From contig JAYUUC010000375.1 of assembly GCA_043755105.1 (NCBI GenBank), forward strand, positions 53,611-117,610: a DNA stretch of 64,000 nt, in the 5' to 3' direction. Positions 32,601 through 55,161 of this stretch are shown here, piece after piece. The notes below the pieces were generated by a model, which saw only the letters and a list, made by a program, of their open reading frames with translations, had not been told where the DNA came from and ran no database searches. Numbering within the stretch: position 1 is the stretch's first letter; each line of letters begins with the position of its first letter. The DNA comes from Myxococcales bacterium (GTDB lineage Bacteria; Myxococcota; Myxococcia; Myxococcales; Myxococcaceae). The translations under genes were made by a program, and so were the position numbers.

Positions 32601-32801
32601 ATCGGCGGCTCGATCCACGCCTCCGAGACCACCGTCCATGACCTGGGGCTGGTGGGGAGCACGCCGAAGCAGGTGCCTCCCACTAACCTGCTGCGCGACC
32701 TCATCGAGCACGCCACTGGCCTCGAGTACGAGGAACTACAACAGCATGACGACAAGGGGTCCTCGGTCATCCGGTCCGGCGGCCTCGTGATCGACATCTG
32801 A
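29601..32801 (+). CDS. terL: terminase large subunit interrupted by a 404-aa LAGLIDADG intein
   Basis: Deviant Walker A SWSSRDSFKT (compare T4 gp17 SRQLGKT) and Walker B MVIDEVD after the intein. The C-terminal nuclease domain has GGMDWGFTHAF...YYPDPESP...DDTPDATRYLVMN. Confidence 0.9.
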   Translation: MSDETEVPDRATLLKRSLFVPLRTKEALRDWIATYLNLVIPDTKVDPTSTASPMDALWYTYRAGLFNDNPDLSTILSWSSRDSFKTLAAAILEVLFVVHLKRNVAHMAAIEPQAVKAQVYVKGFFRRPGLRDFIANDAKRRMVIRRFEHLVTKENINTKAFEALPPAERLNYTEIENYIVVVICTLQGANCVDPSTLVTLADGGAKEAFEVQAGDRVRSFDVARREFVEGEVEYTGVVRKPRMRVTFDDGGSLVLSEDHLVFTDSGWRYARALHLQDQLFSAAEGPGATRESGEIDLEDHGKKSDPVQVLLGTLLGDASMTWPKNKMGEKYGEGPRLAFNHSSKQFDYLEYKVEKLKYLGLDFACIPDGNGYKAFTKISPTLSGLFQELYGSGKKVVTQAFLDQLTIEGVAYWFMDDGAGNPEEVGSRKDHPLSLATCGFSQEENQMIADWFSKMFQVQAKVGTVSNSSEKVYPVIQFDLASSRRLSQLMAPYFYHSLKYKLLAPEQALHGRCIDCGVVLDRPVDRNRFVRCQACPKPNGRNDRMKAQDFKARFTRKISKLEFLPSANLIDIHIKTEDENRRNFIANNAYLLHNSEHVPFMVIDEVDVVPNPRAYEEAKMIPAPMGGFLPITLLTSTRKVSTGLVQKELDNAPKSGLVDLHWNIIDVTERCPQIRHLPHEPKIPIYVNDDRLEAFSPEKYNTLSEKEKSKFRKTEGFAGCLKNCKIFAACQGNLATKQRGQAAGKDHDPTKPITLLKPIAHVQNLFGKLSPESAQAQLLCRKPSQEGLIYSRLSREKHVKSAAQIYEMVTGEKAPTYKNEPYSKKQLVAMFKERGARFYGGMDWGFTHAFAVPIGVVDGNNLYIIDGLEEVGLDPAEKVRYCNDKVKHYGATYYPDPESPSDIAMFKKHGYKLVEWSKGPGSVQAGIEALRLKINPFAGEPQIFFLEGDGGAETVFIRLAQYKFKLDVQGNFSDQPDEEDDDTPDATRYLVMNVFPAGKKIGGSIHASETTVHDLGLVGSTPKQVPPTNLLRDLIEHATGLEYEELQQHDDKGSSVIRSGGLVIDI
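30171..31382 (+). mobile_element. intein with in-frame LAGLIDADG homing endonuclease and a C4 zinc motif
   Basis: Starts CVDPSTLVTLADGG after ...TLQGAN. Block B is LVLSEDHLVFT. LAGLIDADG motifs are LLGTLLGDASM and AYWFMDDGAG. Zinc motif is CIDCG...CQAC. It ends NFIANNAYLLHN|SEH. Confidence 0.85.
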
Positions 32802-33839: not shown

Positions 33840-36035
33840 ATGGCCCTCACCATCCCCCCTACCAATCCAGTCGCCGGGCTGATCGCCGAGGCCCAGAAGA
33901 AGGCGAAGGCCATCGTCATGGACTTCGTCAGCGCCCCGTGGGAGTCGGAGCCCGAGCCCGCCAAGGACAAGGGGGCTTCGCCCAAGCCGGTGCAGACCAT
34001 CAACCCGACCACCCTCACGAAGTTCGAGGCTGAGCGGCCCCTCGTCAAGTCCATCCTCAACATCCTGGACGGCGAGGGCCAGAACTCCATCGAGCGGCTG
34101 TCCTTCGAGACCGACCCGACCCACAACCACTACGCGGGCCTCTACAAGCAGAAGTTGCGCGGCCTGCCGGACATCATCCTCAAGCGCATCGCCATCCAGG
34201 ACGACCTGGTGGCGACCATTGTCAACACCCGCTCGAACCACACCTCGGCCTTCGCTCGCCCGCTGGTCAACCGCTTCGAGAAGGGCTTCCAGATCGAGCC
34301 CAAGAAGGGCGTGACCGACTCGATGAGCCCGGAGCAGAAGGAAGCTCTTCAGAAGAAGATCGACAAGGCCATCAAGCTCCTGGTTTCCTGCGGGCACACC
34401 GAGGGGTACGACGGCGACGAGCGGATGACCTTCTCGCAGTACCTGTACATGACCACGCGGAACGCCCTGGTCTTCGGCCGGAGCGCCACCGAGATCGTGT
34501 GGGCCGAGACGGATGACCCCGACAAGCCGATGTGGCACTCGTTCCGGCCCATCGACGCGGGCACCATCTACAACGTCAACCCCTTCTCCCAGAGCCGGGA
34601 GATCTACAACCTCCGCAAGGAGGCCATCACCCAGCTGAAGCAGCTGAAGGCCCAGACCGACTCGGACTTCGACTGGGACGACCTCTTGAAGGAAGACGAG
34701 GACTACCGCTACCTCCAGGTGATCGAGGGCCAGCCCAAGCAGGCGTACACGGCCCGGGAGTGCATGGTCCACAACTTCTACCCGGTCACCGACATCGAGA
34801 TGGACGGCTACCCGCTGACCCCCATCGACACGATGGTGGCCGCGGTGACGACCCACATCAACATCACGACCCACAACAAGCTCTATTTCCAGTCGGGTCG
34901 CGCTTCGAAGGGTATGCTGGTGCTGAAGTCGGACGACGTCAACCCGACGGTCATCCAGCGAATCAAGCAGCAGTTCCAGGCTTCCATCAACGGCGTCTCG
35001 AACTCCTGGCGCATGCCCGTCTTCGGCATCGGCAAGGACGACGACATCACCTTCGAGCCGATCGACCAGGGCTCGAGGGACATGGAGTTCCAGTACTTGT
35101 CGGACCAGAACTGCCGCGTGATCTTGTCGGCCTTCGGCATGAGCCCCGACGAGCTGCCCGGCTACAACCACCTGTCGAAGGGGTCGAACTCGCAGTCCCT
35201 GTCGGAGGCCAACAACGAGTTCAAACTCGAGGCGGCCCGAGACGTGGGCATTCGGCCGCTCCTGCGCCAGCTCGAGGACACGATCAACGGGACCATCATC
35301 CCGCTCATCGACGAAGAGGTGGCTGAGCTGTGCAAGTTCCAGCTGGTCGGCCTCGACGCGGACACGCCGGAGAAGGAGGCCACCAGGCTGTCGGAGCAGA
35401 TGCCGATCTCGATGACGATGGATGAAGTCCTCGAGAAGGTGGAGAAGGACCCGGTGGGCAAGGAGTGGGGTGGCGACTTCCTCTTCAACGAGGCTTACCA
35501 GAACATCCTGAACTCCTACTTCCTGTGCGATGAGATCCGGCTGCACTTCTTCAACAAGAAGCCGGACCCCAACAACCCGGATGAGTGGCACTACGCCCGA
35601 GACCAGTTCTACCAGGGCCAGCAGCAGCGCCTGGACATGCTGAAGCAGGCCGCCCAGCAGGCTGCGCAGCCGCAGCCCGGGGCGCCTGGACAGCCTCCGG
35701 CCGGTGGGGGTGGGCAGCAGCCTCCTCCTTCTGGCGGCCAGCAGCAGCCTCCGGCCACTGGGGCTCCGGAAGGGTCGACCTCGGCGGGGTCGGTGCAGCC
35801 CACTCCCGCGGGTGACGGCGAGAACGCTCCTTCTGGTGGTGGCGACATCTCTTCGTCGCTTGACCAGATCGCTGGGGCCCTGGGCAAGTCCGAGGACCAT
35901 CTCCCCGCTTCCCGGCAGCGCTTGCTCGGGCAACAGAAGAAGGCCGTGAAGGGCATCCTCGAGGCGTTCGAGAAGGACGCCAACGACTTCCTCAAGCTGG
36001 CCTCGCAGGTGGTGGCCGAGAGCAAGAAGGACTAG
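33840..36035 (+). CDS. portal protein
   Basis: 731 aa, located after terL and before the Mu F-like gene. Portal-like core GYPLTPIDTMV...GMLVLKSD...WRMPVFGIGKDDDITFEPI...SAFGMSPDELPG. Q/P/G-rich C-terminal tail. Confidence 0.7.
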   Translation: MALTIPPTNPVAGLIAEAQKKAKAIVMDFVSAPWESEPEPAKDKGASPKPVQTINPTTLTKFEAERPLVKSILNILDGEGQNSIERLSFETDPTHNHYAGLYKQKLRGLPDIILKRIAIQDDLVATIVNTRSNHTSAFARPLVNRFEKGFQIEPKKGVTDSMSPEQKEALQKKIDKAIKLLVSCGHTEGYDGDERMTFSQYLYMTTRNALVFGRSATEIVWAETDDPDKPMWHSFRPIDAGTIYNVNPFSQSREIYNLRKEAITQLKQLKAQTDSDFDWDDLLKEDEDYRYLQVIEGQPKQAYTARECMVHNFYPVTDIEMDGYPLTPIDTMVAAVTTHINITTHNKLYFQSGRASKGMLVLKSDDVNPTVIQRIKQQFQASINGVSNSWRMPVFGIGKDDDITFEPIDQGSRDMEFQYLSDQNCRVILSAFGMSPDELPGYNHLSKGSNSQSLSEANNEFKLEAARDVGIRPLLRQLEDTINGTIIPLIDEEVAELCKFQLVGLDADTPEKEATRLSEQMPISMTMDEVLEKVEKDPVGKEWGGDFLFNEAYQNILNSYFLCDEIRLHFFNKKPDPNNPDEWHYARDQFYQGQQQRLDMLKQAAQQAAQPQPGAPGQPPAGGGGQQPPPSGGQQQPPATGAPEGSTSAGSVQPTPAGDGENAPSGGGDISSSLDQIAGALGKSEDHLPASRQRLLGQQKKAVKGILEAFEKDANDFLKLASQVVAESKKD

Positions 36036-41848: not shown

Positions 41849-42206
41849 AGACGTCCTCGGGGATGGCTTCGGTTGGGCGCCAATCGGGCCTGTTCTCTTG
41901 CCTCAGGAGCTTGAGAAAGACCTTCATGGCCTGTCTCTGCTCGCTTGCCTTGCGCTTGTACATCTTCTGGACGAGGTCGATCGAACAGCTACGCCTCTGA
42001 GGGTCCGTGAGACCCACTCTAAGCACCCACCGGCACGTCCACTCCTCTTTGCTGACGTAGATACGGAAGAGCTTGTGGTCGGAGTAGATTTTCCCGGATA
42101 CAAAATCGGTGAGGAATTGAAATGGGTCATGCTTGACCATTCCCTCCGGTCCGTACTTCGGCTGAGAGATGACGTTGCCGTACTTGTCGCAGGGAACCCA
42201 GCCCAT
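41838..42206 (-). CDS. hypothetical protein
   Basis: 122-aa ORF. ATG is preceded by GGAGGG. It ends ...RPDWRPTEAIPEDVYAL. Confidence 0.55.
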   Translation of the reverse strand: MGWVPCDKYGNVISQPKYGPEGMVKHDPFQFLTDFVSGKIYSDHKLFRIYVSKEEWTCRWVLRVGLTDPQRRSCSIDLVQKMYKRKASEQRQAMKVFLKLLRQENRPDWRPTEAIPEDVYAL

Positions 42207-42228
42207 CGTCCCTCCAGAGTGAGCCCAT

Positions 42229-42258
42229 AGCCTACTCGAACTACAACCTCTAAGTCAA
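42229..42258 (-). promoter_or_regulatory. promoter candidate TTGACT-N18-TAGGCT
   Basis: On the minus strand, TTGACT is plus 42258-42253 and TAGGCT is plus 42234-42229, with an 18-nt spacer. It lies about 23 nt upstream of the ATG at 42206. Confidence 0.45.
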
Positions 42259-42321
42259 CCTATTGCCTTCCAGGGATAATCTAAGGACTACTTTCCCTGC
42301 CGAAGCAAGAGGTTGTGCCCC

Positions 42322-45300
42322 ATGGAACTCCCCAGCCAAAGCAACGCGACGGGCATGCTCATCGACGGCATCGCCTGCTCGGAGGCCATCGACACCTCCG
42401 GCGAGGTGCTCGACGTGGCTGGCTCGGACATCTCCGACGTCGAAGCTGGGCTCGCCACCCTGAACTGGGAGCATCGGGACGACGAATCCCAGGGTGCCTC
42501 CGCGCTCGACCACGTGGGCAAGATCATCTACGTGAAGAAGATCTTCAAGTCGGCCGACTGCGAGAACGACCGCCAGCGCTACTTCTGGGACCAGGTGGAG
42601 CTGCCCTTCATCTACATCATCGGTCGCCTCTTCGACGGGGCTGGTCACGCGGGCGCTCTGGCCCTGGCCGCCATCATGCGCGACCAGATCAACAACGGGG
42701 AGAAGCTCTTCTGCCGGTTCTCGGTCGAGGGCAGCACCCTGAAGCGCGACGGCAACCGGCTCAAGACCACCATCTTCCGTCGCTGCGCCGTCACCGTGAA
42801 GCCAGCCAACCGCTCGGCGAACACGGGCGTCTTGGCCGACCCACGCCCACCCCCGGGTGTCACTGCGGCCAAGCTGAAGGACCTGCCTACCGATGAGGAG
42901 ATCGAGAAGTCTCTCATCATCGACCCGATGTACCGGCACCTGGGCTCGTTCGAGATGGAGTACGACCCCATTCTCAAGGCCGAGGACATGGGCGGTTACA
43001 ATGCCCCTCCGAGCACCCTGACGAACGGAGCGGCCCTCATGCGTGAGGACCGGGCCCTGCGCCAGCGCTGGACTGCCATGGCCAAGGCGGCCTACCGGGA
43101 CCGCCCCAAGGACGGCACCCCCTTCCAGCGCTTCCTGAAGTTCCGGATGCCGGACGCGGACCCCAGCTTCATCGACGCCTTCGCAGCCATGGCCGACGAC
43201 TACCACCTCCACAAGGGCGAGATGAACGACACCCAGGTGGAGACCGCGGTCCTGGACTACCCGGAGTCTCTGGGCAAGGCCGAGAACGTGGCGCTCGAGG
43301 AGCCTCAGGTCTCGCCGAAGGTGCCTGGCAAGGAGAAGGAGGTCCCGAAGAAGGAAATCATGAAGATGCTGCCCGAGCACGCCGCCAAGTTCAAGCGCGT
43401 GGTCGGCTCATCGGGCCGCCTGGTGAAGAAGAAGGCCGACTCCTACTTCGATGAGAACACGGGCGTGCTCCACACCCACGTGGGCTCGTTCCCCATGCAC
43501 ATCCCGAAGGACCAGGGCTACCTGGACATCCTCAACGCCCCGGAGACCAGCGAGCCCCACGACGCGGCTGTCAAGAACTGGATCCACCTCAACAACGCCC
43601 TGAAGGCTGGCAAGCTGCCGCCCGAGGTGGCCATGCACGCGGCCCTGTTCTCAGGCATGTCCCCTTCGGCCCCGGTGCCCCTCCAGGAGATGGCGTACTC
43701 GCACCTCCAGGACATGATGGGCAACGGCCTCGACCCCACCAAGTCGGGCGCCACCTCGGATGCTCTGCGGGAAGAGTTCATCAACCGCACGGGCCCAGGC
43801 GGCCCCCTGCCGGAGTACATGAAGGAGTTCTGGGCTGGTCCGGGCGGCGCTGCCACTCGCACCCAGAAGGGCAGCGGGAAGCAGCGAGGCATCCTCTACC
43901 CCGGCCAGAAGTGGTACGCGGTCGAGAACTACAACCGCTTGCACCCCTACCTCAACCAGCTGATCGACCAGCACCGGGGCGACGTCCGCTCGATCACCGA
44001 GGACCTGCTCCAGAACAAGGGCGCGGCCCAGCTCCACGACGCCAAGGCCAAGCGCGACGCGGCCAAGGGCATCGTGACTCCCGACTACGAGACGACCACC
44101 GGGAAGTCGGCGGTGAAGGGCTACGCCCCGAAGACGGTGCGCTACCTCTTGGGCATGCTGGGGGGCGGCAACGTCCACGTCCCCGACACCCACTTCATCC
44201 GCCACACCTTCGGCCTCCCCACGGACGGCGAGATCAAGGACCAGACCGAGAAGCACCTGGGGCGCAAGCTCCGGGAAGGCCCCAAGACCCAGGAGGTCGG
44301 CTTCACCCCCAACGAGCACCTCAAGGACATCCTGTGGGACGATTCGGTCGCGGGCCACATCGGCTCGCAGATGGATCGCTACTACGCCCAGCACCACCCG
44401 GTGGTGAAGCACGTCGCTGAGCGACACGGGCTCGACCCGCAAGACGCCCTGTTCCCGGCCTTCTGGAAGCACTGGCTGTCCATTGCTCCGGATGAGCGGC
44501 GCCGGGGTATCTACAACGAGAACAACCAGGAGGGCACCGACCACCGTGTCTACTGGAACATGGTCAACAAGATCATGCAGAAGTACGGGCTGCCCAACAA
44601 CGGGCTCATCAAGGCCGACCCGGAGAAGCCCGAGGTCAAGCCCCCGTTCGAAGAGGCCGATTCGCGATTCGCGGACATGCCCCCGCACATCCGCTCGGCA
44701 ATGGCGATGAACACCATCCACCAGCTCTTCGGGCCAACGGGCGCCCAGTTCCACTACTACCACTCGATCGTGCCTCTGCTCATGCAGGTGGCCCGGAAGC
44801 GCGAGCTGTACGAGGAACCCGAGGCCGAGGTGGCCAAGTTCGAGTCGATGCTGGTCGACATGCGCAAGGCTGCCAACGAAGCCACGGAGGAGCTGAAGAA
44901 GCCCCTCGAGGTGGTCTTCCAGGGCAAGCGCATCCAGCCTGGCAAGGGTGAGTTCGGCGTGAAGCCCCCGAGCTACCCGGACTTCAACTTCAGCATCCTG
45001 GGCAAGGACCACCGGCACTACTTCGTGGTCCACCCGAGCAGGCTCCCCAACTTCAAGGCCAAGGACATCGCCAAGATCCCGCGTGACCGGGAGAACTTCA
45101 CCTACCAGGTCAACGACCACCCGAAGGACCTGGACGCCAAGGCCATCGTGGACTCGGCCGTCCATGGTCTGCCGGACCTCAATACCTCGAAGGAGCAGCA
45201 CGACCTGGTGCATGGCCTGCTCCTGAACAACAACCCCATCAATGCTCCGGCCGGGGCGATGACCCAGGACTTCCTGGGGGTGAAGAACTCCGAGTGGCGG

Positions 45301-46155
45301 AAGAACGCCCAGGGTAAGCCGGTCTTTGTCAAGGCAGGCACGCCTGGAGAGGCCGCTCACCTGGGGGCCGAGTCGGACTCGCAGCAGGTGCGCAACGAGA
45401 TCGCCTACCACAACCTCGCTCGAGACTTCTTCGGCATGGGGATGTTCGTCCCGACCACGGCTGGCTTCGTCCACCCCCAGACCCAGCGCCTGCACGCGGT
45501 GGTCGAGGGCATCCCAGGTGCCATCCACGCCCACACCGAGGACCACCCGGGCGGCTTCTACCCCAAGGTCCTGAAGGCCCTGCACCAGACCGGCCTGCTT
45601 CACCAGGCCGCCTTTATGAACGCCATCTTGGGCAACTCGGACCGCCACCAGGGCAACTTCATGCTCACGAAGGCTCCGGCCGACGGGAAGGCTCCGCTCC
45701 AGCTGATCGACCACGGCTTGTCGTTCATCGACCCGCGGGACCACTACAACATGCCGGTCTACCTCCACGACCACCTGATGCACACCAACATGGAGGACCA
45801 GCCGGTCGACCGAGTCGGCCGGATGAACGCGGCCACCAAGAAGGTGGAGTACCGGGAGGAGCGCGGCCCGCACCAGTTCAAGAACATCGACCGGATTCGC
45901 CCGGAAGCCTCCCGGTGGCTGATGTCGTTGAACCCGAAGGAGCTGGCGTCCCAGATGAAGCTGATGGGGATGAAGCGTGATAAGATCGCGAGGACAGTCG
46001 AGAATTTGAAGTTCTTCCAGTCCCAGGCCCAGGCTTTTGGGCCCACCTACTCGGTCAACGACGCTTTCCTCCAAGGGCCCGGCAACAGCACCAACGACCC
46101 GAAGAAGCTCCAGGAAGAAGCCGCTCGCCAGCACCACGAAGGCCACGAGGCCTAA
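42322..46155 (+). CDS. 1277-aa multidomain head-module protein: N-terminal prohead-protease-like domain, central HhH-GPD-like segment, C-terminal atypical (PI3K/PI4K- or HipA-like) kinase module
   Basis: ATG at 42322 has AAGAGG 9 nt upstream; the track start at 42313 is TTG. The N-terminus ...ACSEAIDTSGEVLDVAGSDIS...LNWEHRDDES...HVGKIIYV...FCRFSVEGST resembles HK97-type (U35/S78) prohead proteases. GYAPKTVRYLLGMLGGGNVHVPDTHFIRHTFGL resembles the HhH-GPD motif (weak). The C-terminus has VFVKAG, RNEIAYHNLA, LGNSDRHQGNFML (DRH at 45640-45648) and LIDHGLSF. Confidence 0.8.
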   Translation: MELPSQSNATGMLIDGIACSEAIDTSGEVLDVAGSDISDVEAGLATLNWEHRDDESQGASALDHVGKIIYVKKIFKSADCENDRQRYFWDQVELPFIYIIGRLFDGAGHAGALALAAIMRDQINNGEKLFCRFSVEGSTLKRDGNRLKTTIFRRCAVTVKPANRSANTGVLADPRPPPGVTAAKLKDLPTDEEIEKSLIIDPMYRHLGSFEMEYDPILKAEDMGGYNAPPSTLTNGAALMREDRALRQRWTAMAKAAYRDRPKDGTPFQRFLKFRMPDADPSFIDAFAAMADDYHLHKGEMNDTQVETAVLDYPESLGKAENVALEEPQVSPKVPGKEKEVPKKEIMKMLPEHAAKFKRVVGSSGRLVKKKADSYFDENTGVLHTHVGSFPMHIPKDQGYLDILNAPETSEPHDAAVKNWIHLNNALKAGKLPPEVAMHAALFSGMSPSAPVPLQEMAYSHLQDMMGNGLDPTKSGATSDALREEFINRTGPGGPLPEYMKEFWAGPGGAATRTQKGSGKQRGILYPGQKWYAVENYNRLHPYLNQLIDQHRGDVRSITEDLLQNKGAAQLHDAKAKRDAAKGIVTPDYETTTGKSAVKGYAPKTVRYLLGMLGGGNVHVPDTHFIRHTFGLPTDGEIKDQTEKHLGRKLREGPKTQEVGFTPNEHLKDILWDDSVAGHIGSQMDRYYAQHHPVVKHVAERHGLDPQDALFPAFWKHWLSIAPDERRRGIYNENNQEGTDHRVYWNMVNKIMQKYGLPNNGLIKADPEKPEVKPPFEEADSRFADMPPHIRSAMAMNTIHQLFGPTGAQFHYYHSIVPLLMQVARKRELYEEPEAEVAKFESMLVDMRKAANEATEELKKPLEVVFQGKRIQPGKGEFGVKPPSYPDFNFSILGKDHRHYFVVHPSRLPNFKAKDIAKIPRDRENFTYQVNDHPKDLDAKAIVDSAVHGLPDLNTSKEQHDLVHGLLLNNNPINAPAGAMTQDFLGVKNSEWRKNAQGKPVFVKAGTPGEAAHLGAESDSQQVRNEIAYHNLARDFFGMGMFVPTTAGFVHPQTQRLHAVVEGIPGAIHAHTEDHPGGFYPKVLKALHQTGLLHQAAFMNAILGNSDRHQGNFMLTKAPADGKAPLQLIDHGLSFIDPRDHYNMPVYLHDHLMHTNMEDQPVDRVGRMNAATKKVEYREERGPHQFKNIDRIRPEASRWLMSLNPKELASQMKLMGMKRDKIARTVENLKFFQSQAQAFGPTYSVNDAFLQGPGNSTNDPKKLQEEAARQHHEGHEA

Positions 46156-46158
46156 CCC

Positions 46159-47622
46159 ATGAATGAGCCTTCCATCTACTCGGTCTTCAACATCCACCTC
46201 CGTCCCGACGGGTCGACCTACCGTCAGGAGGCAGGGACCTACTACATCTTCGATGGCAACCTCGAGGTTGTTCACGACCCCTTTGGGTTGCTGAACAAGG
46301 TCTTGGGGTCGAACGGGCCCATCACCCATCGGAAGGTCAAAGCTCTCCAGCGGTTGGAGAATTCGTCCTACTACGATGTGGTCAAAGAGGGGCCCAACGG
46401 CGACATCATGAACGGCGACCGGCCGGACCTCATCCCAGAGCTGGAACTGAATGACCCCAACGGGGGCCAGGTGGAGAAGGTCACGCCCCAAGCCAAGCCC
46501 CCGGCCGTCTGGGAGTACCTGCGCTCGGGCCTGTCCACGCCCCAGATACTGGAGGTCTACAACGACAAGGGCGTGCTGAACGGCCTGCCTCTCTCGACGG
46601 AAGAGCTGGCCCAGATCCGCAACAACGTCAAGGAGGGCATTGCCACGCTGCGTTATCCCGAGCGGCCCGAGCTGGTGGTGAAGTCGATGGAGGACCCCTA
46701 CTACGAGCGCCTCTTCAAGAATGAGGAGGACAAGTACTCGGTGTCCCAGAGCGACGTCGCCGACGCCCAGCGTTCAGCCGGGCACTTCGCCAAGCTCCAA
46801 CAGCTGGTGCAGCAGGGCATGCTCGACCCGGAGACCCTCCAGCACATGCGGACGCTGGCCTACGGCGACACGGTGACGGGTTTGGGAAACAAGCTCGCCT
46901 ACAAGCACTTCCTGGCCAACAAGAAGCCGGGCGGGGTCCACGTGATGCTGGACGCCAATGACTTCAAGCCCATCAACGAAGAGCTGGGCCACGATCAGGG
47001 AGACAAGGCCATCGCAGCCATGGGCGGCGCGATCAAGCAAGCCCTGGACGACACCCACCAGTCGATGCCAGTTGAGAACGATTCGTCCGCAGGCAAGGCG
47101 CACCGATTTGGCGGGGATGAGTTCCACGTCCATCTGCCCACGACGGACCATGCCTCGCTCTTCTCGAGGAAGCTGGCCCAGCGGTTGGAGCAGATCCCGG
47201 CCCTGGGAGGCACCCACCACATCGGGATGTCACTCGGGATTGGCCAGGACCCGCGGACGGCCGACGAAGCGCTTGATCGGGCGAAGAAAACCCTGAAGCA
47301 GCCCGAGCTAGAGCAGCTGGCTGGCCGGAAGCTGGGCAACGGCGAGCGCCCGTTTGACCCCGTGACCGGCAGGGCCATCCGGGCGCAAGGGAAGGTGTAC
47401 GCCTACTCCCTCCACCCTAGTGCGCCAGGACCCGTACCTCAACCGGGACACGCGGTTCCTCCTGGAGCGATTCCTCCCCCGATGTCTGCGCGAGAGACGG
47501 CCCCGAGGCCGAACATCCTGCCTCCACCGATGCCGGTTGCTCCGGCGGGCGCCACACCGGGACAGCCCAAGGCTCCGGCTCCTTCGGGGGCCACGGCTGC
47601 ACCGAAACCGACTGCGGGGTGA
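46159..47622 (+). CDS. GGDEF-domain protein (diguanylate cyclase-like) with an unknown N-terminal domain of about 200 aa
   Basis: VTGLGNKLAYKHFL..., HVMLDANDFKPINEELGHDQGDKAI and AHRFGGDEFHVHLP (GGDEF at 47110-47124). I see no RxxD I-site at the usual position 5 residues before GGDEF. The start is 4 nt after the preceding stop. Pro-rich C-terminal tail. Confidence 0.8.
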   Translation: MNEPSIYSVFNIHLRPDGSTYRQEAGTYYIFDGNLEVVHDPFGLLNKVLGSNGPITHRKVKALQRLENSSYYDVVKEGPNGDIMNGDRPDLIPELELNDPNGGQVEKVTPQAKPPAVWEYLRSGLSTPQILEVYNDKGVLNGLPLSTEELAQIRNNVKEGIATLRYPERPELVVKSMEDPYYERLFKNEEDKYSVSQSDVADAQRSAGHFAKLQQLVQQGMLDPETLQHMRTLAYGDTVTGLGNKLAYKHFLANKKPGGVHVMLDANDFKPINEELGHDQGDKAIAAMGGAIKQALDDTHQSMPVENDSSAGKAHRFGGDEFHVHLPTTDHASLFSRKLAQRLEQIPALGGTHHIGMSLGIGQDPRTADEALDRAKKTLKQPELEQLAGRKLGNGERPFDPVTGRAIRAQGKVYAYSLHPSAPGPVPQPGHAVPPGAIPPPMSARETAPRPNILPPPMPVAPAGATPGQPKAPAPSGATAAPKPTAG

Positions 47623-48193
47623 ACGCCTGGAGGTAGGCGATAGCCTTCTCCAGGGTAGGGACACTCTCTCGAGCGTGACCCAGTAAGACGTTGCAGTGCA
47701 TGCACAACAACATCCTCAATGCGCCGGTTGCGTGGTCATGATCGACTACCAACCGGCGTTCTCCTTGTGGTTGGCAGCAGATGGGGCAGCAGCCTCCTTG
47801 TAGCTCGTACTGCTTCTGGTACAGCTCGGGGGTCAAGCCCCACTTCTTCAGGTGCTGGGCCCAGGCCTTCTCGCCGGGCTGGCGCTGCTTTCGTTTCCGC
47901 TTGACGTTGGTGTTGATGTCCTCGCACTCGATGCACCCCGAGCGCTTGGAGCGGAAGTCCAGCAGGATCGGCTTGACCACCTCGCACTGAGCACACTGCT
48001 TGAGCCCGGCCTTTCGAAGGCAACGGGTGCAGTTTTCCTCGGTTACCTGGCGCCCAGGCCACTTACAGGTCGGGCAGTACCAGCGGTAGTGGTGCATCGC
48101 ATCTTCCATCGCTTCTCTGGTTCGGTCGCGCATGTCCTGAAAATTACCGTCGCAGTCTGACGGAAATGGCTCGCACTTGAACACCAAGTTCAA
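47417..48193 (-). CDS. endonuclease VII-type (T4 gp49-like, HNH-related) nuclease with an N-terminal Cys-rich region
   Basis: CPICCQPQGERRLVVDHDHATGALRMLLCMHCNVLLG matches the Endonuclease_7 signature (C.iC...l.vDHdH.tG.vRglLC..CN..lG). The 3' 206 nt overlap the convergent GGDEF gene. Confidence 0.8.
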   Translation of the reverse strand: MNLVFKCEPFPSDCDGNFQDMRDRTREAMEDAMHHYRWYCPTCKWPGRQVTEENCTRCLRKAGLKQCAQCEVVKPILLDFRSKRSGCIECEDINTNVKRKRKQRQPGEKAWAQHLKKWGLTPELYQKQYELQGGCCPICCQPQGERRLVVDHDHATGALRMLLCMHCNVLLGHARESVPTLEKAIAYLQAFTPQSVSVQPWPPKEPEPWAVPVWRPPEQPASVEAGCSASGPSLAQTSGEESLQEEPRVPVEVRVLAH

Positions 48194-48244
48194 TCCTCAT
48201 TCTTGCCGAGGGAGCTGGTTCCCTCAAACCTTTTGGAGAAGTCC

Positions 48245-48715
48245 ATGACTGCTCAGTCTTCCGTTCGCGCCCGCATCCTGCTCGAGTCCATCGCCGACGA
48301 GGCGCTGCGCAAGTTCCCCACCCTCGCGCAGACCCCCGGCTTCAGCGCGGTGGCTGGCATCGAGGGCTCGCCCACGCTGCTCCTGGGCACGGGCGCCACC
48401 GACACCGACTCGGTCTTCATCCGCATCGCCCCCTCCGTCCAGGCGTGGGCCAAGGACGTGCTGGGCAACGCGGCCCAGGTGTACGGGCCGCTCGTCGCGG
48501 CTGTCGTGACCGAGACCGCGTCGACCGCGCTCGTGGGTGGCAGCTCGCCCGTGCGTGACTGGGTGCAGTCGTACCTGGCCGCGTCGGGCCTCGAGGTCGT
48601 CCATTACAACACGGCCCACGCCACGGGCCCGAGCGAGGCAGGCATCACGGGCACGCCGGTCTCGGACACGGTGCTCGACACCAAGTGGCCGGGCATGCCG
48701 GGCAACCAGCAGTAA
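48245..48715 (+). CDS. hypothetical protein (head-module position)
   Basis: ATG at 48245 (MTAQSSVRARILLES...) inside track ORF 48203..48715. Confidence 0.55.
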   Translation: MTAQSSVRARILLESIADEALRKFPTLAQTPGFSAVAGIEGSPTLLLGTGATDTDSVFIRIAPSVQAWAKDVLGNAAQVYGPLVAAVVTETASTALVGGSSPVRDWVQSYLAASGLEVVHYNTAHATGPSEAGITGTPVSDTVLDTKWPGMPGNQQ

Positions 48716-48741
48716 CGGGCGGTCGAAAGGAGACTACGACC

Positions 48742-49929
48742 ATGCCTACCATGAACGGCCTTCCGCCGGACCACATGCTGAAGAAGGCCATCGCCGAGAC
48801 CGAAGACGCGATGGCGAAGATGTGGGCAGAACTCAAGCTCCGCAAGGACGTCGCGCCCGAGGGTTCGCCCGAGGGTACGCCGCCTGCTGAGGAAACGCCC
48901 GGCGAGGGCTCTCCCGGTGACCCGTCCGGCCCGACGGCAGACCCTTCCGCTGGCTCGAGCGACCCTGCCTCGGCTGGTGGTCCCCCGGCCCCCGCGGCTG
49001 GTGGCGACGGTGCCCCTGGCCCCGATGGCGCTTCCGCTGGCGGTGACCCCGCTGCGGCGGGTGCCCCGACGGACCCGCAGGCGCTGATGGACGAGTACTC
49101 CAAGCTCTCTCCCGAGGACCTCCAGGTCCACCTGACGGCGGCCATGCAGGTTGCCCAGCAGATGGGCATCCAGGTCCCCGGCGCGGGCGACGCTTCGGCT
49201 CCTCCGGCCGGTGACCCGGCTGCGGGTGGCCCGAGCGCTGGCGCTGACCCCTCGATGGGCGCCCCCCCGGGCCCGTCCGCTGGTCCCTCGGCCGCTCCTC
49301 CGGGCCCGTCTGCTCCCCCGGCTGGTCCGAGTGCGCAGCCTGACCCGAATGCGCCCCCGATGATGGGCAAGGCGGCCAACGATCGCATGGCCGCGGTGGC
49401 TCCTTCGAAGGCTGGCGGCGCTGGTTCCAACCGCCTGGCCCCGATCGCGCCGACCAAGGCTGGCGGCGCTGGCCAGAACCGGCTCACCCCGGTGATGCCG
49501 ACCCGCAAGCAGGAGAACGCGCTGCCCCTGGGCAACACGCCCGGCCCGATGTCCGGCCCGGCCAACGGCCAGAACCCGCTCGAGCAGGTGAAGAAGTCCC
49601 TCGAGGCCGAGATCGAGAAGCTGAAGAAGTCGGCGGTCGAGAAGGACCTCGCCCACCAGACGCTGCTCAAGACGACCACGAGCCTGATGTCCACGCTGAC
49701 CGGCAAGCTCAAGCCCGGCACGCCCCTGCGCAAGTCCATCACGGGTTCGTCCCAGGTGACTGCGCCGGTCCGCGCCCCGGCGCCCACCAACATGTCCCGC
49801 GCCCAGATCCTGGAGACCCTCCAGGCCAAGACGCGCGAGGGCAAGCTGAGCAAGTCGCAGCAGGCCAAGGTGATCTCCTTCACCATGGGCAACATCGACG
49901 CCTCCGAGATCTCCGACCTTCTGAAGTAA
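48742..49929 (+). CDS. putative scaffolding protein
   Basis: ATG at 48742 is preceded by AAAGGAGA. It has a long P/A/G/S low-complexity centre and a helical, charged C-terminus (LEQVKKSLEAEIEKLKKSAVEKDL...). It lies directly upstream of the major capsid gene. Function is inferred from position and composition. Confidence 0.5.
   Translation: MPTMNGLPPDHMLKKAIAETEDAMAKMWAELKLRKDVAPEGSPEGTPPAEETPGEGSPGDPSGPTADPSAGSSDPASAGGPPAPAAGGDGAPGPDGASAGGDPAAAGAPTDPQALMDEYSKLSPEDLQVHLTAAMQVAQQMGIQVPGAGDASAPPAGDPAAGGPSAGADPSMGAPPGPSAGPSAAPPGPSAPPAGPSAQPDPNAPPMMGKAANDRMAAVAPSKAGGAGSNRLAPIAPTKAGGAGQNRLTPVMPTRKQENALPLGNTPGPMSGPANGQNPLEQVKKSLEAEIEKLKKSAVEKDLAHQTLLKTTTSLMSTLTGKLKPGTPLRKSITGSSQVTAPVRAPAPTNMSRAQILETLQAKTREGKLSKSQQAKVISFTMGNIDASEISDLLK
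49399..49494 (+). repeat. 2 x 48-nt in-frame tandem repeat within the scaffold-like gene
   Basis: Unit 1 (49399-49446) encodes APSKAGGAGSNRLAPI. Unit 2 (49447-49494) encodes APTKAGGAGQNRLTPV. The core AAGGCTGGCGGCGCTGG is identical in both. Confidence 0.7.
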
Positions 49930-49984
49930 CCGAAGCACAACCCCCTTTGGGCCCATAAGCCCCCAAAAACCTGAGGTAAATCAC

Positions 49985-51388
49985 ATGGAAGCTCTTCTGC
50001 GGTCGATGGAGTCCCTGACGAAGGCGCTGGATGCCGGTGCCTCGAACGCTGCCCCCAGCACCCTGGTGCAAGGCTCGGCGCTGATGGTCGAAGACCTGTC
50101 GCCGGTCATGGAGGTCGTGACCTGGGACGACAAGGCCATCAAGCTCCAGAACCTCATCTCGGTCGACTCGACCAAGTCGCTCCTGGCGCAGTTCAACCGC
50201 CAGCTGAGCTACGGCCAGTTCGGCGGGTCCGCCCAGCTCGAGGGGTTCATCGGCCAGGAAGAGACGGACGTGTACGTCCGGATCGTGGTCCCGATGGCCT
50301 TCTACTCGCACATCCGCCGCGTGACCCTCGTGGCCAACATGGTCGAGACGAGCGACGGCAAGAAGGCTGAGGAGCGCGCGGCTGCCTCGGCGGCCAAGAA
50401 GATCGCGGCCGACATCGAGTTCGACCTCTTCCGCGGCAAGGGCGACTTCGCCGACCCGACGGGCGTGTTCAACGGCAACCCGGGCCTGATCCCGACCATG
50501 CCCAACATGCTGGGCATCGAGGCGCAGGTCCGCATGTCGGACAGCGAGTACAAGTCCAAGGACCAGATGTTCGGCGAGTTCGGCAGCGATGACTCGATCG
50601 TCATCCCCGGCGGCTCGACCCTGACCCAGGACAACGTGGAGGACGCCGCGGTGCGCTCCACCATGAACCACGGGCAGGCGGAGAAACTCCTGGTCGACCC
50701 CCGCGTGCTGAGCAACTACAACAAGATCACGCAGGCCAAGGAGCGGGTGGTCCTGGCTGGCTCGCCGATCGGCGCGACGGGCGCGGATCTCCGCAAGCAG
50801 TGGGTCAGCGGCGGCACGGTGGACGTGGAGGCCTCGCGCTTCCTGTCCGGCAAGACCCGCCCGCAGCAGGCGCGTCAGCAGGGTGGCCCGGGTGCGTTCG
50901 GCACCACCACGCTGAGCTACCCCGCGGGCAACACGGGCTTCATCGCGGGCCAGACCTACACGTACTACGTGACGGCTGGCAACCAGAACGGCGAGTCGCT
51001 CCGCAACGCCGCGGTCGTGGCGACCGTGCCCACCACGGGCTACGCCATCCAGCTGTCGGTGGTCAACCCCTCCGCGGGCACCGCGACGCTCTTCATGAAC
51101 GTGTACCGCTCGAGCGCGGGCGGCGGCCTGGCCGACGCGAAGTTCATCGGCCGTGTGGCGCTGGTCCAGGGTGGCCCGACCATCTTCATCGACCAGGGCA
51201 ACAAGCTGCCTGGCTTCGTGACGGGCTACCTGCTCCAGCTCGACACCTTCGCCATCAAGGAGCTGTCCTCGTACAGCCGCGTGAAGCTCGCCGTCACGGA
51301 GCTGGCGCAGCCGGAGGCCCACTTCCGGTTCCTGACGCTGGCGAACATGCAGCCCCGGAAGAACGTCCTGATTGACAGCCTTCGCTAG
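49985..51388 (+). CDS. major capsid protein (HK97 fold) with an inserted beta-rich domain
   Basis: 467 aa after the scaffold-like gene. The N-terminal ...LVQGSALMVEDLSPVMEVV... pattern is typical of HK97-type capsid proteins. An FN3/Ig-like stretch YTYYVTAGNQNGES...LSVVNPSAGTATLFMNVYRS is inserted. A strong hairpin lies downstream. Confidence 0.75.
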   Translation: MEALLRSMESLTKALDAGASNAAPSTLVQGSALMVEDLSPVMEVVTWDDKAIKLQNLISVDSTKSLLAQFNRQLSYGQFGGSAQLEGFIGQEETDVYVRIVVPMAFYSHIRRVTLVANMVETSDGKKAEERAAASAAKKIAADIEFDLFRGKGDFADPTGVFNGNPGLIPTMPNMLGIEAQVRMSDSEYKSKDQMFGEFGSDDSIVIPGGSTLTQDNVEDAAVRSTMNHGQAEKLLVDPRVLSNYNKITQAKERVVLAGSPIGATGADLRKQWVSGGTVDVEASRFLSGKTRPQQARQQGGPGAFGTTTLSYPAGNTGFIAGQTYTYYVTAGNQNGESLRNAAVVATVPTTGYAIQLSVVNPSAGTATLFMNVYRSSAGGGLADAKFIGRVALVQGGPTIFIDQGNKLPGFVTGYLLQLDTFAIKELSSYSRVKLAVTELAQPEAHFRFLTLANMQPRKNVLIDSLR

Positions 51389-51422
51389 TCGGCACCACCT
51401 CAGCAGCAGAACGCTGAGACCA

Positions 51423-51465
51423 GAGGCCCGGCCCCTTCCACAGGGACCGGGCCTCTTACGTTGTT
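51423..51465 (+). terminator. GC-rich hairpin after the capsid gene (terminator with a weak T tract)
   Basis: GAGGCCCGGCCCC (51423-51435) pairs with GGGACCGGGCCTC (51443-51455): 12 bp plus one mismatch, 7-nt loop. TTACGTTGTT follows. Confidence 0.4.
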
Positions 51466-51492
51466 GACCTTGTAGTTCGTCCGAGGTAGGAT
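51464..51492 (+). promoter_or_regulatory. promoter candidate TTGACC-N17-TAGGAT
   Basis: TTGACC at 51464-51469 and TAGGAT at 51487-51492, with a 17-nt spacer. It lies 24 nt upstream of the ATG at 51516. Confidence 0.45.
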
Positions 51493-51515
51493 GCAGAACC
51501 TTCCTCGGAGGACGC

Positions 51516-51944
51516 ATGTACAACAGGCTTTCTATGGTGTCGTTGCAGCTCCAGATCGCGTTGACGGAGAACGAGATTCGTCTGCTTCATAGGGCCGCCA
51601 CGGCAACCGAGTACAAGGAGTACATCGAATCCTGCTCGCGTCGACACGCCGAATCCATGCTTGGGGTACTGGTGCTCAAAAGGACGCCCCCCGAACAGAA
51701 GCACATCCCTCGCCTGTTCGTCTTCAACATCTGGCACCTGGAGGACTATATCGAGCGTGTCAAGGACTTCTTGGCGAAGAACAACGCCGTCATCAGCACC
51801 CAGGACTACAACGACCTGAAGCGCCTCGAAGGGGAGATCCGCGAGCTACATCTCAAGGCTGAGAACGCCGTCAACAAGCTCGATGCAGTGGCCAAAACCT
51901 TTGATGTACTGCCTCCTCGACAGTACCCTCCGATTGACGGTTGA
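51516..51944 (+). CDS. hypothetical protein
   Basis: 142-aa ORF with ATG start and its own promoter candidate. Confidence 0.6.
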   Translation: MYNRLSMVSLQLQIALTENEIRLLHRAATATEYKEYIESCSRRHAESMLGVLVLKRTPPEQKHIPRLFVFNIWHLEDYIERVKDFLAKNNAVISTQDYNDLKRLEGEIRELHLKAENAVNKLDAVAKTFDVLPPRQYPPIDG

Positions 51945-51969
51945 CTCTCCGTCCGAAGTCCAGTAGGCT
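51941..51969 (+). promoter_or_regulatory. promoter candidate TTGACT-N17-TAGGCT
   Basis: TTGACT at 51941-51946 (overlapping the upstream stop) and TAGGCT at 51964-51969, with a 17-nt spacer. It precedes the isolated tRNA-like element. Confidence 0.5.
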
Positions 51970-52048
51970 GCTTCTCGGTCAAGCGACCACCTGAGCATGC
52001 AAACCGTCAAGAGGGCTCGAGACCTCGACCACGGGCACCATGCGAGGG

Positions 52049-54252: not shown

Positions 54253-55161
54253 ATGACGAAGATTTCTGCACGAGTGATCGAGGACTCAGCCTATCCAGGA
54301 ATGGATGCCAGGCTGACCACCCTGGTCCTCACCTATCCCCGGTTCATCCATGCAGAGCTGATGACGCACCGCGTCTTCTCTCGCAATGCGGCTTCGTCTC
54401 GGGCCATTCCAGTCTCGAAGATGCTGAAGCGCGCCGAAGAAGACCCGGCCAACCCCATCTTCTGGGGCAAGAACCAGCCTGGCATGCAGTCGTGGGAAGA
54501 GCTGGACCCGGACGAGAAGCGGCTGGTGCAGGAGGAGTGGAAGTCCCTCCAGGACAAGACCATCCTGTCGGTGGCCAAGCTGAACCGGCTCGGCTTCCAC
54601 AAGCAGTACGCCAACCGCCCCCTCGAGTGGTTCGGCTGGATCGAGACCATCCTCACCGGCACCAACTTCGACAACTTCGTGGCCCAGCGTGCCCATGGCG
54701 ACGCCCACCCCGAGTTCGGGCTGTCGCAGGAGATGAACACTGGGCTGGCCGTCGAGGTGCTCAACGCCTTGAATGCCTCCCACCCGCGCGTCCTCAATTT
54801 CGGCGAGTGGCACTTGCCCTTCCTGAAGAAGGAAGAGCGGCCCGAGTTCCGGGGCATCTCGTGGGGCCACGAAAAGTACCTGACCTACATTAAGCGGTCG
54901 GCGGCTCGCTGCTCGCGGGTCTCGTACATGAACCACGAGGGCAAGGTGACCACGGTCGAGGAGGACCTGGCCCACTACGAGAAGCTCGCCGGGGCCGTTC
55001 CGATGCACTCGAGCCCGATGGAGCACCAGGCTACCCCCTACACGGGCGAGACCCGCGGCAACTTCAAGGGCTTCCGCCAGTGGCGCTCCTACATGCCGAA
55101 CAACGTGGTCCAGGAAGACAAGCGGCTCCTCAAGTGGGGCGCGGGGCTCGTCGATGAGTGA
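54253..55161 (+). CDS. thyX: FAD-dependent thymidylate synthase ThyX
   Basis: ThyX signature ...IHAELMTHRVFSRNAASSRAIP... (RHR...S...S.R-type motif), in a 302-aa protein of typical ThyX size. Confidence 0.8.
   Translation: MTKISARVIEDSAYPGMDARLTTLVLTYPRFIHAELMTHRVFSRNAASSRAIPVSKMLKRAEEDPANPIFWGKNQPGMQSWEELDPDEKRLVQEEWKSLQDKTILSVAKLNRLGFHKQYANRPLEWFGWIETILTGTNFDNFVAQRAHGDAHPEFGLSQEMNTGLAVEVLNALNASHPRVLNFGEWHLPFLKKEERPEFRGISWGHEKYLTYIKRSAARCSRVSYMNHEGKVTTVEEDLAHYEKLAGAVPMHSSPMEHQATPYTGETRGNFKGFRQWRSYMPNNVVQEDKRLLKWGAGLVDE

Follow-up and report, generated by a model that had tools for sequence, protein, structure and literature searches.

In herpesviruses, proteins of the pUL26 type combine an N-terminal assemblin protease, a release site and a long C-terminal scaffold part that enters the procapsid. 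Among tailed phages, the head proteases of T4, phiKZ and SPN3US cut after glutamate, shed C-terminal propeptides of their own and also act on packaged proteins, which are later ejected into the host (PMC9026906, PMC10052503). Phage effectors can also be carried by polyvalent proteins, of which PBECR5 and GGDEF are known domains and in which assemblin-like peptidases are rare, of limited distribution and 'always at the C termini' (Iyer et al., 2017; PMC5512222). Here, we analysed a window of 64,000 nucleotides (nt) of contig JAYUUC010000375.1 (assembly GCA_043755105.1), whose source is an Mx1-like myovirus (genome of about 164 kb, judging from the longest contig on record for the protein studied here), and focused on a gene of its head module (42322-46155, + strand) that encodes a protease-cargo polyprotein. 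Our favoured reading, to which we give a probability of about 0.55, is that this gene encodes a prohead protease built on an SPO1-like core, to which about 1,000 residues of enzymes have been appended and which also loads effectors for delivery.

The polyprotein gene is a single open reading frame (ORF) of 1277 codons, from an ATG at 42322 to a TAA at 46153-46155, with a product of 142.6 kDa. It follows a block of - strand ORFs and begins a series of + strand genes that continues to the gene of the major capsid protein. The gene lies between those of the portal protein and the major capsid protein (Table 1), and no other protease-like gene was seen in the head module. The eight genomes compared, i.e., the window, the Myxococcus phage Mx1 and six metagenomic genomes (L003, L004 and L008-L011), share the order TerL, portal, polyprotein, small proteins and capsid protein. 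The original prediction, made from the sequence letters, had placed at this locus a protease fused to about 1100 amino acids (aa) of cargo. Start, stop, length and quoted motifs are all found in the sequence, at coordinates that are exact or off by a few bases: LNWEH at aa 47-51, VGKII at aa 65-69, RFSVEG at aa 132-137, GYAPKT...VPDTH..RH at aa 600-627 (nt 44119-44202), NSDRHQGN at aa 1105-1112 and LIDHG at aa 1128-1132. Its estimate of the cargo is fair (1277 minus a protease core of about 175 aa, or 1035 aa past the putative cleavage site), and the synteny with Mx1 and the six metagenomic relatives confirms that the gene occupies the protease locus of the head operon.

The first 175 residues, the best-conserved part of the polyprotein family, are assigned to the HK97/S78-type (assemblin-fold) capsid-maturation proteases, with predicted catalysis, in agreement with the domain originally proposed. 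The AlphaFold2 (AF2) model of this region, obtained from an alignment with 25 relatives, has a predicted local distance difference test (pLDDT) score of 80.9, exceeding 90 through the core. In a Foldseek search of the PDB, the top six matches were five herpesvirus maturation proteases and T4 gp21 (probability 0.77-0.99), followed by noise; the template modelling (TM) scores of these fold matches are modest (0.33-0.47). The PHROG 1028 profile ('head maturation protease') matches 14 of the 25 relatives, with a best E value of 3.5e-11, and matches the query itself weakly (E = 1e-3). Moreover, BLASTP aligned the protease with gp3.2 of the phage SPO1 (E = 2e-8), LNWEH being opposite FNFDH and RFSVEG opposite GFSVEG, and gp3.2 exceeds the threshold of the Pfam family Peptidase_S78 (23.7 bits vs 21). 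The candidate catalytic residues H51 (nt 42472-42474) and S134 (nt 42721-42723) are aligned between the two proteins and are invariant in sets of 25 and 39 aligned relatives, as are H109, D105 and several other residues of the core. Searches of PDB sequences with the protease region (phmmer with aa 1-310, and the family profile) yielded no genuine match, a hit of UHRF1 to aa 229-273 in the phmmer search being spurious. Because the query has no direct sequence match in Pfam or the PDB, its membership in the protease family rests on the fold, the PHROG matches and the transitive homology through SPO1.

Just after the protease, the polyprotein carries a copy of the motif found at the N-terminus of the window's own major capsid protein. 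When a 25-column hidden Markov model (HMM) of this motif, built from the polyprotein family, was run against the 863 six-frame ORFs of the window, only the polyprotein (E = 3.5e-13) and the capsid protein (E = 9.1e-12) were retrieved, the next E value being 1.9. In BLASTP, the two segments share 55% identity (E = 4e-8). This pairing was found in all eight genomes checked, and in the Mx1-like genomes the similarity ends at E|D, the motif closing with ALMRE|D in the polyprotein and with ALMVE|D in the capsid protein. The P1 glutamate is kept in 37 of 39 aligned polyprotein relatives and in eight of eight capsid proteins, and the pattern [AVG][LFM]..E[DS] occurs once per protein, in the polyprotein as in the capsid protein. 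SPO1 has the same pairing in its own version (...LDKSLEAGYEVDPEKMEGGDVFRKESL... in the protease and ...LNKALEAGHTVNPLDLEGGGAFRVESL... in the capsid protein), and the feature is therefore ancestral to the head module. Since the proteases of T4, phiKZ and SPN3US cut after glutamate, we read E242|D243 of the polyprotein and E36|D37 of the capsid protein as candidate maturation sites, the former being a candidate site of self-cleavage. A docking element, in place of or in addition to a cut site, is a live alternative for the same motif. We found no experimentally mapped cleavage site of a capsid protein of SPO1-like phages in the literature, and the motif copy, common to the window and to SPO1-like phages, provides a lead on both the recruitment of the protease and the position of its cut.

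The segments that join these parts differ in their conservation. A small helical 'anchor' downstream of the motif is common to all members of the family, including short stand-alone proteases (P0176, P0181), and is followed by a variable basic linker. Extra modules are inserted between the positions corresponding to aa 223 and 224 in P0047, P0088, P0095, P0098, P0104 and P0108, the module of P0108 being PBECR5. The linker between the middle module and the kinase contains a conserved helix at aa 876-891 (nt ~44947-44994; K.E.L...L+KA), and a helix of the same kind ends the stand-alone proteases of about 330 aa (P0176, P0181, P0187). The middle module may thus have been inserted between the anchor and a C-terminal helix of ancestral origin, and this helix could be the actual tail that binds the capsid or the scaffold.

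The middle module is a mostly helical unit of 496 aa, for which the AF2 model has a pLDDT of 85.8 and a predicted TM score of 0.76. The motif that had been noted in it as possibly of the HhH-GPD glycosylase type is in register with Ogg2-type glycosylases in three weak, concordant tests, K604 falling each time on their catalytic lysine and D622 on their catalytic aspartate. The family profile run against PDB sequences (hmmsearch) places MjOgg (3fhf) second at E = 1.4, aligned on the signature motif. The top three Foldseek matches in the PDB are all Ogg2 structures, of Tm1821 (3n0u) and MjOgg (3knt), with probabilities of 0.77-0.89, target TM-scores of 0.46-0.52 and E values of 0.26-0.36; AGOG and QNG1 appear lower in the list. 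Finally, hhalign against a small Ogg-HhH profile, obtained from a search with a 47-aa MjOgg fragment that yielded six short fragments, gives P = 0.0019 and a probability of 14.5%, with the lysine and the aspartate in register. The signature segment (GYAPK604 to VPD622THFIR) is nearly invariant in the family; G600, K604, G614, V620, D622, H624 and R627 are invariant or nearly so, K604 and D622 are spaced by 18 residues, and the AF2 model predicts a succession of helix, hairpin, helix, loop and helix. Searched against a set of 5.8 billion proteins, the profile of the middle module retrieved family members only, with no link to cellular HhH-GPD proteins. Its matches in the BFVD database of viral structures are large phage proteins with no characterised function and, at a weaker level, proteins named after polyvalent-protein domains. 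From these sequence and model comparisons we consider it fairly probable that the module is HhH-GPD-like, acting either as a glycosylase/lyase or in DNA binding only.

The C-terminal region corresponds to a PI3/PI4/HipA-like kinase with intact catalytic residues and predicted activity, as had been proposed for this part of the protein. Pfam PF00454 matches the query at E = 1.8e-5 with 22.9-25.3 bits, which is under the threshold of 27.1, the catalytic-loop region alone being aligned; the same family exceeds its threshold in relatives (27.5-32.8 bits), 19 of 39 homologs match at E<=0.01, and one relative matches HipA_2. A phmmer search of the PDB with the kinase module gave no match. Across 52 homologs, D1107, R1108, N1112 and D1130 are at least 95% conserved, and H1109, K1004 and E1026 are conserved as well. 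K1004 and E1026 correspond to the lysine and glutamate of the ATP site, D1107-R1108-H1109..N1112 to the catalytic loop, and D1130 to the metal-binding aspartate (the DFG equivalent). A second copy of the kinase module lies in the C-terminal half of a 451-aa ORF (61297-62652, + strand; kinase-family HMM, E = 3.9e-23), and the 890-aa NUDIX fusion protein encoded at 58613-61285 (+ strand) has a weak catalytic-loop match at its C-terminus (E = 0.035). In Mx1, a 'kinase' is annotated after the NUDIX gene, and the NUDIX protein of L003 has a faint PI3_PI4_kinase match.

The gene immediately downstream of the polyprotein encodes a GGDEF cyclase with an intact motif. Along its entire length, this protein is homologous (E values down to 6e-59) to the last ~400 aa of relatives in which a GGDEF module is joined in frame to the polyprotein, as is the case in many members of the family. 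Among the genomes compared, a separate GGDEF gene, directly or closely downstream, accompanies the polyproteins of the kinase type and is missing where GGDEF is fused to the polyprotein.

The family to which the polyprotein belongs is large. A word-indexed search detected 108 homologs, and an exhaustive search with the profile of the protease domain led to 1256 clusters at E<=1e-3, of which 694 at E<=1e-30. A length above 550 aa, reaching 1953 aa at most, was found for 137 of the best 150 representatives, which carry the protease at their N-terminus. We identified architectures in which the protease and the motif are followed by the middle module and the kinase, by the middle module and GGDEF, by GGDEF, by the kinase, by the middle module, or by all three cargo modules together; further variants include a PBECR5 RNase, a ParB_N-like domain, inteins and domains of unknown function. 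A few forms of about 330 aa resemble complete stand-alone proteases, composed of the protease, the motif, the anchor and the terminal helix. Weak Intein_splicing matches under threshold (P0019, aa 457-823, E = 6e-4; P0132, aa 605-991, E = 1.6e-4) suggest that inteins also invade the polyprotein gene. This pattern, in which the N-terminal unit stays the same and the enzymes at the C-terminus are exchanged, is the one that a carrier-plus-cargo arrangement predicts. Among 50,697 phage records searched by tblastn with the whole protein and with the protease domain, the only one bearing a homolog is Mx1, whose protein WNM70322.1 (1239 aa, annotated as 'putative prohead protease') is 31% identical to the window protein across 94% of the length and is encoded in the same gene neighbourhood. 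The announcement of the Mx1 genome does not discuss this gene, and megablast of the region 40000-52000 of the window found no match in the phage records.

These data can be assembled into a pathway in which we infer the cleavage, the retention in the capsid, the ejection and the targets of the enzymes. The region formed by the protease, the motif and the anchor would carry the polyprotein into the assembling prohead, as in other prohead proteases. Once activated, the protease would cut the capsid protein after ...ALMVE36 and itself after ...ALMRE242. This self-cut would free a fragment of 116 kDa (aa 243-1277), probably too large to exit the shell, and the fragment, with its Ogg2-like module and its kinase, would stay with the packaged DNA and be ejected into the next host. 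There, it may act on host or phage DNA and phosphorylate host targets before phage gene expression. The adjacent GGDEF cyclase would be part of the same cargo set, probably also acting in the next host. We count in favour of retention that the prohead protease of an SPO1-like phage was detected in the virion proteome (PMC3601020). The polyprotein has at least two effector-type domains, variable architectures across its family, a location among virion genes and a processing peptidase, all of which are criteria of polyvalent proteins, and it is best read as a variant of these in which a prohead protease serves as the loading vehicle. The idea of a self-processing, prohead-targeted polyprotein put forward in the original prediction is thus partly supported, in an indirect manner, because a capsid motif copy follows the protease, the cargo is shuffled and GGDEF is fused in relatives. 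The release of several products, also part of that idea, finds no support, one candidate cleavage site having been found.

Several observations weigh against this pathway, and those that concern the motif would fit a polyprotein packaged uncleaved, as an intact internal protein of 143 kDa whose motif docks to the scaffold or the inner shell like the N-arm of the capsid protein. With its 25 aa, the motif is far longer than the typical protease sites of 3-4 residues, and in SPO1 the similarity extends beyond E|S. In the GGDEF-fused lineage of P0058 (the polyprotein at 9001-12951 of L003), the motif is degenerate and lacks the glutamate (GALVPQSIG), yet the rest of it is kept, and the capsid protein of the same genome has ALQVED; cleavage there therefore cannot be universal. 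Moreover, motif pairs from the same Mx1-like genome are not clearly more alike than pairs from different genomes, and the motif could thus be a docking element rather than a cut site. The vRNAP of phage N4 is a precedent for a polyvalent protein that is packaged unprocessed (PMC5512222). However, the retention of the P1 glutamate in nearly all the polyproteins and all the capsid proteins aligned, the end of the Mx1-like similarity exactly at E|D, and the habit of related assemblin-fold phage proteases of cutting after glutamate and trimming their own C-termini argue for cleavage, and we consider uncleaved packaging unlikely. Neither the motif nor the pattern [AVG][LFM]..E[DS] recurs elsewhere in the polyprotein, and we found no site in the stretch that separates the middle module from the kinase. 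Even if freed, the cargo might act only in the producing cell or in the prohead, on phage DNA during packaging or on host proteins, and then be degraded or expelled with the scaffold. Indeed, most propeptides and core proteins cut by prohead proteases exit the head, an HhH-GPD module could plausibly act on DNA during packaging, and genes of nucleotide metabolism (thymidylate-synthase-like, NUDIX) are located nearby. On the other hand, a folded 116-kDa fragment is unlikely to pass through capsid pores unless cut several times, for which the polyprotein offers no further sites; kinases, GGDEF and PBECR RNases are types proposed as injected effectors in polyvalent proteins; and a cytoplasmic role needs no fusion to a capsid-targeted protein. 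An action confined to the producing cell therefore seems to us improbable, to much the same degree as packaging without cleavage.

The assignment of the domains has weak points of its own. Pfam S78 (PF04586) has no direct match to the query, tested as whole protein and as separate segments, and the same Pfam scans gave no LPD match; the glycosylase tests are individually weak, and the Pfam HhH-GPD families (PF00730, PF22175) match neither the query nor any of 39 relatives. We also found no proteomic, biochemical or structural data on Mx1 or its relatives in the literature. Furthermore, Mx1 encodes a 187-aa 'Clp protease-like protein' (OR576727.2, 144701-145264, - strand), which, together with the missing S78 match, would be compatible with a ClpP-like enzyme encoded elsewhere that matures the capsid, the polyprotein being then a cytoplasmic multi-enzyme whose N-terminus processes itself or host proteins. 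However, this Mx1 gene belongs to the replication module, where it adjoins the primase-helicase and is remote from the head genes, a position that makes its product an unlikely head protease, and it has no homolog within the window. The S78-like gene, in turn, occupies the canonical place in the portal-protease-scaffold-capsid order in eight genomes, is homologous to the head protease of SPO1 and bears the N-terminal motif of the capsid protein, and we regard an exclusion of the polyprotein from capsid maturation as very improbable. An artefact of assembly or a frameshift that fused separate genes has nothing specific in its favour beyond the tendency of high-GC genomes to yield long spurious ORFs, such as a 946-aa antisense ORF (43651-46491, - strand) that covers most of the polyprotein gene and is most likely a shadow ORF typical of DNA with ~63% GC. 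Such an artefact is effectively refuted because the architecture is conserved throughout the family, with more than 100 independent, collinear homologs from different samples, among them a phage in culture (Mx1) and closed contigs about 170 kb long, and we give it a negligible probability.

A broader proposal, which we advance tentatively and hold, taken jointly in all its parts, to be somewhat less probable than even, is that the protease is a general loading device, enzymes fused to it (and perhaps encoded) downstream of the release site being packed in every capsid and then injected. According to this proposal, the cargo would be present in copies at the stoichiometry of the protease (tens in better-studied phages) and would enter ahead of or with the DNA. 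The Ogg2-like module, which is the most constant cargo, could tether the cargo to the genome or act on bases at entry, and the kinase and the GGDEF cyclase would rewire host signalling before phage gene expression. The proposal may concern a large and mostly uncultured group of phages of ~170 kb.

Outside the T4 and phiKZ groups, little is understood of how tailed phages load their capsids with enzymes for injection. The family described here suggests a simple route, in which the enzymes would travel as C-terminal extensions of the prohead protease, placed after a release site that is a copy of a capsid-protein motif. If true, these proteins would represent a natural modular scaffold for protein delivery and would supply pre-made kinase, cyclic-nucleotide cyclase and DNA-glycosylase-like activities at the onset of infection, with a bearing on host takeover and on the evasion of nucleotide-signalling defences. 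The concept of polyvalent protein would also extend to a core morphogenetic enzyme. The idea lends itself to direct tests, given that Mx1 is available in culture and that Myxococcus xanthus is amenable to genetics.

The other genes of the head module are consistent in position with those of Mx1 (Table 1). The capsid protein of the window shares 53% identity with that of Mx1 and ~24% with SPO1-like capsid proteins. The gene of the 170-aa protein is conserved in position in the relatives, where its product has 145-155 aa. For the candidate scaffold of 414 aa, Pfam and PHROG scans gave no family match. With 1066 aa, the large terminase is longer than its counterparts in Mx1 and relatives (640-667 aa). 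Its residues 307-502 match a LAGLIDADG homing endonuclease, the terminase matches being located at aa 823-1000, and the gene has probably been invaded by an intein or a homing endonuclease. The interval that separates the GGDEF gene from the following head gene holds an endonuclease VII/HNH-type gene (47417-48193, - strand; PHROG 2633, E = 3.4e-27), whose ORF runs into the Pro/Ala-rich 3' end of that of GGDEF. Mx1, L003 and L004 have no called or annotated gene there, and that of the window is likely a mobile homing endonuclease. Further downstream, we identified a gene of the thymidylate synthase family (54253-55161, + strand; PHROG 85, E = 2.7e-67), followed by that of the NUDIX fusion; in the equivalent region of Mx1, genes for a thymidylate synthase and a dNMP kinase adjoin the head genes. 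These neighbours could reflect a metabolism of modified bases, possibly relevant to the glycosylase-like cargo.

Table 1. Features of the polyprotein gene and of the surrounding head module (window coordinates; aa numbering is that of the respective protein).
Feature	Coordinates	Strand	Basis or remark
Large terminase, upstream of the polyprotein gene	29601-32801	+	1066 aa
Portal protein, fixing the head-module context	33840..36035	+	PHROG 12, E 6.6e-24
Shine-Dalgarno-like AAGAGG	42307..42312	+	9 nt 5' of the ATG; direct sequence reading
Whole gene, protease-cargo polyprotein	42322..46155	+	108 homologs; match to Mx1 WNM70322.1
Prohead protease core, aa 1-175	42322..42846	+	AF2 fold, PHROG 1028, SPO1 gp3.2 homology
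Poorly conserved linker, aa 176-218	42847..42975	+	pLDDT <50 at aa 184-187 and 197-214
Copy of the capsid-protein N-terminal motif, aa 219-243 (KAEDMGGYNAPPSTLTNGAALMRED)	42976..43050	+	HMM, BLASTP; candidate self-cleavage E242|D243
'Anchor', small helical segment, aa 244-305 (..RD....F..FLK.RMPDADPSFIDAFA..ADDY)	43051..43236	+	Alignments
Variable basic linker, aa 306-374	43237..43443	+	ParB_N-like insert here in P0004 and P0132
Middle module, aa 375-870, Ogg2-like HhH-GPD core	43444..44931	+	AF2, Foldseek
HhH-GPD signature, aa 600-627 (GYAPKTVRYLLGMLGGGNVHVPDTHFIR)	44119..44202	+	Candidate catalytic K604, D622
Linker with conserved helix, aa 871-939 (AKFESMLVDMRKAA)	44932..45138	+	Family alignments
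PI3/PI4/HipA-like kinase module, aa 940-1250	45139..46071	+	Pfam PF00454, conserved residues
GGDEF cyclase gene, 487 aa, motif intact	46159..47622	+	Pfam GGDEF, E 9e-13; starts 4 nt past the polyprotein stop
Head-operon protein, 170 aa, no assigned role	48203..48715	+	Weak homology to Mx1 WNM70325; synteny
Pro/Ala/Gly-rich protein, 414 aa, candidate scaffold	48685..49929	+	Position, composition; homolog Mx1 WNM70326
Major capsid protein, 467 aa	49985..51388	+	PHROG 752, E 3.9e-38
Capsid-protein motif, aa 13-37 (KALDAGASNAAPSTLVQGSALMVED)	50021-50095	+	Candidate maturation cut E36|D37

The closest described relative of the N-terminal unit is gp3.2 of SPO1, a Bacillus phage of the Herelleviridae. 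The two proteins have homologous catalytic domains, their genes lie between the portal gene and the scaffold/capsid genes, each protease is followed by a copy of the N-terminal motif of its own capsid protein, and these capsid proteins are distantly homologous. However, gp3.2 has 256 aa and ends ~65 aa past the motif, whereas the window protein runs ~1,000 aa further. The assemblin fold is also that of phiKZ gp175, SPN3US gp245 and T4 gp21, the last with a system of capsid-targeting sequences carried by IPI-III and Alt, and T4 gp21 (5jbl) is among the fold matches of the window protease. In these phages, the cargo consists of separate products with N-terminal targeting propeptides, whereas in the window it is covalently downstream of the protease; the propeptide of the SPN3US protease is short (64 aa).

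For the cargo modules, the nearest counterparts of the HhH-GPD-like core are the Ogg2/AGOG-type proteins (MjOgg, 3fhf/3knt; Tm1821, 3n0u), with which it shares the helix-hairpin-helix, the Gly-rich loop and the aspartate 18 residues past the lysine. Unlike in these proteins, the core of the window protein is embedded in a 496-aa unit with large N- and C-terminal extras. With polyvalent proteins, the family shares a large size, several effectors, a location among virion genes and extensive shuffling, as well as GGDEF, kinases, PBECR and ParB-like domains. It differs from them by its peptidase, which is always N-terminal and located at the prohead-protease locus, and by its kinase, which is PI3/PI4/HipA-like, theirs being a truncated Ser/Thr/Tyr-type kinase. 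A text search of the polyvalent-protein survey for 'glycosylase' and 'endonuclease III' found neither term (Iyer et al., 2017; PMC5512222).

In overall layout, the window protein is like the herpesvirus proteins of the pUL26 type, whose proteases are also its best fold matches (4v07, 2pbk and 5ur3), at identities of 11-14%. The difference lies in the C-terminal part, which is a scaffold in herpesviruses and is composed of enzymes in the window protein.

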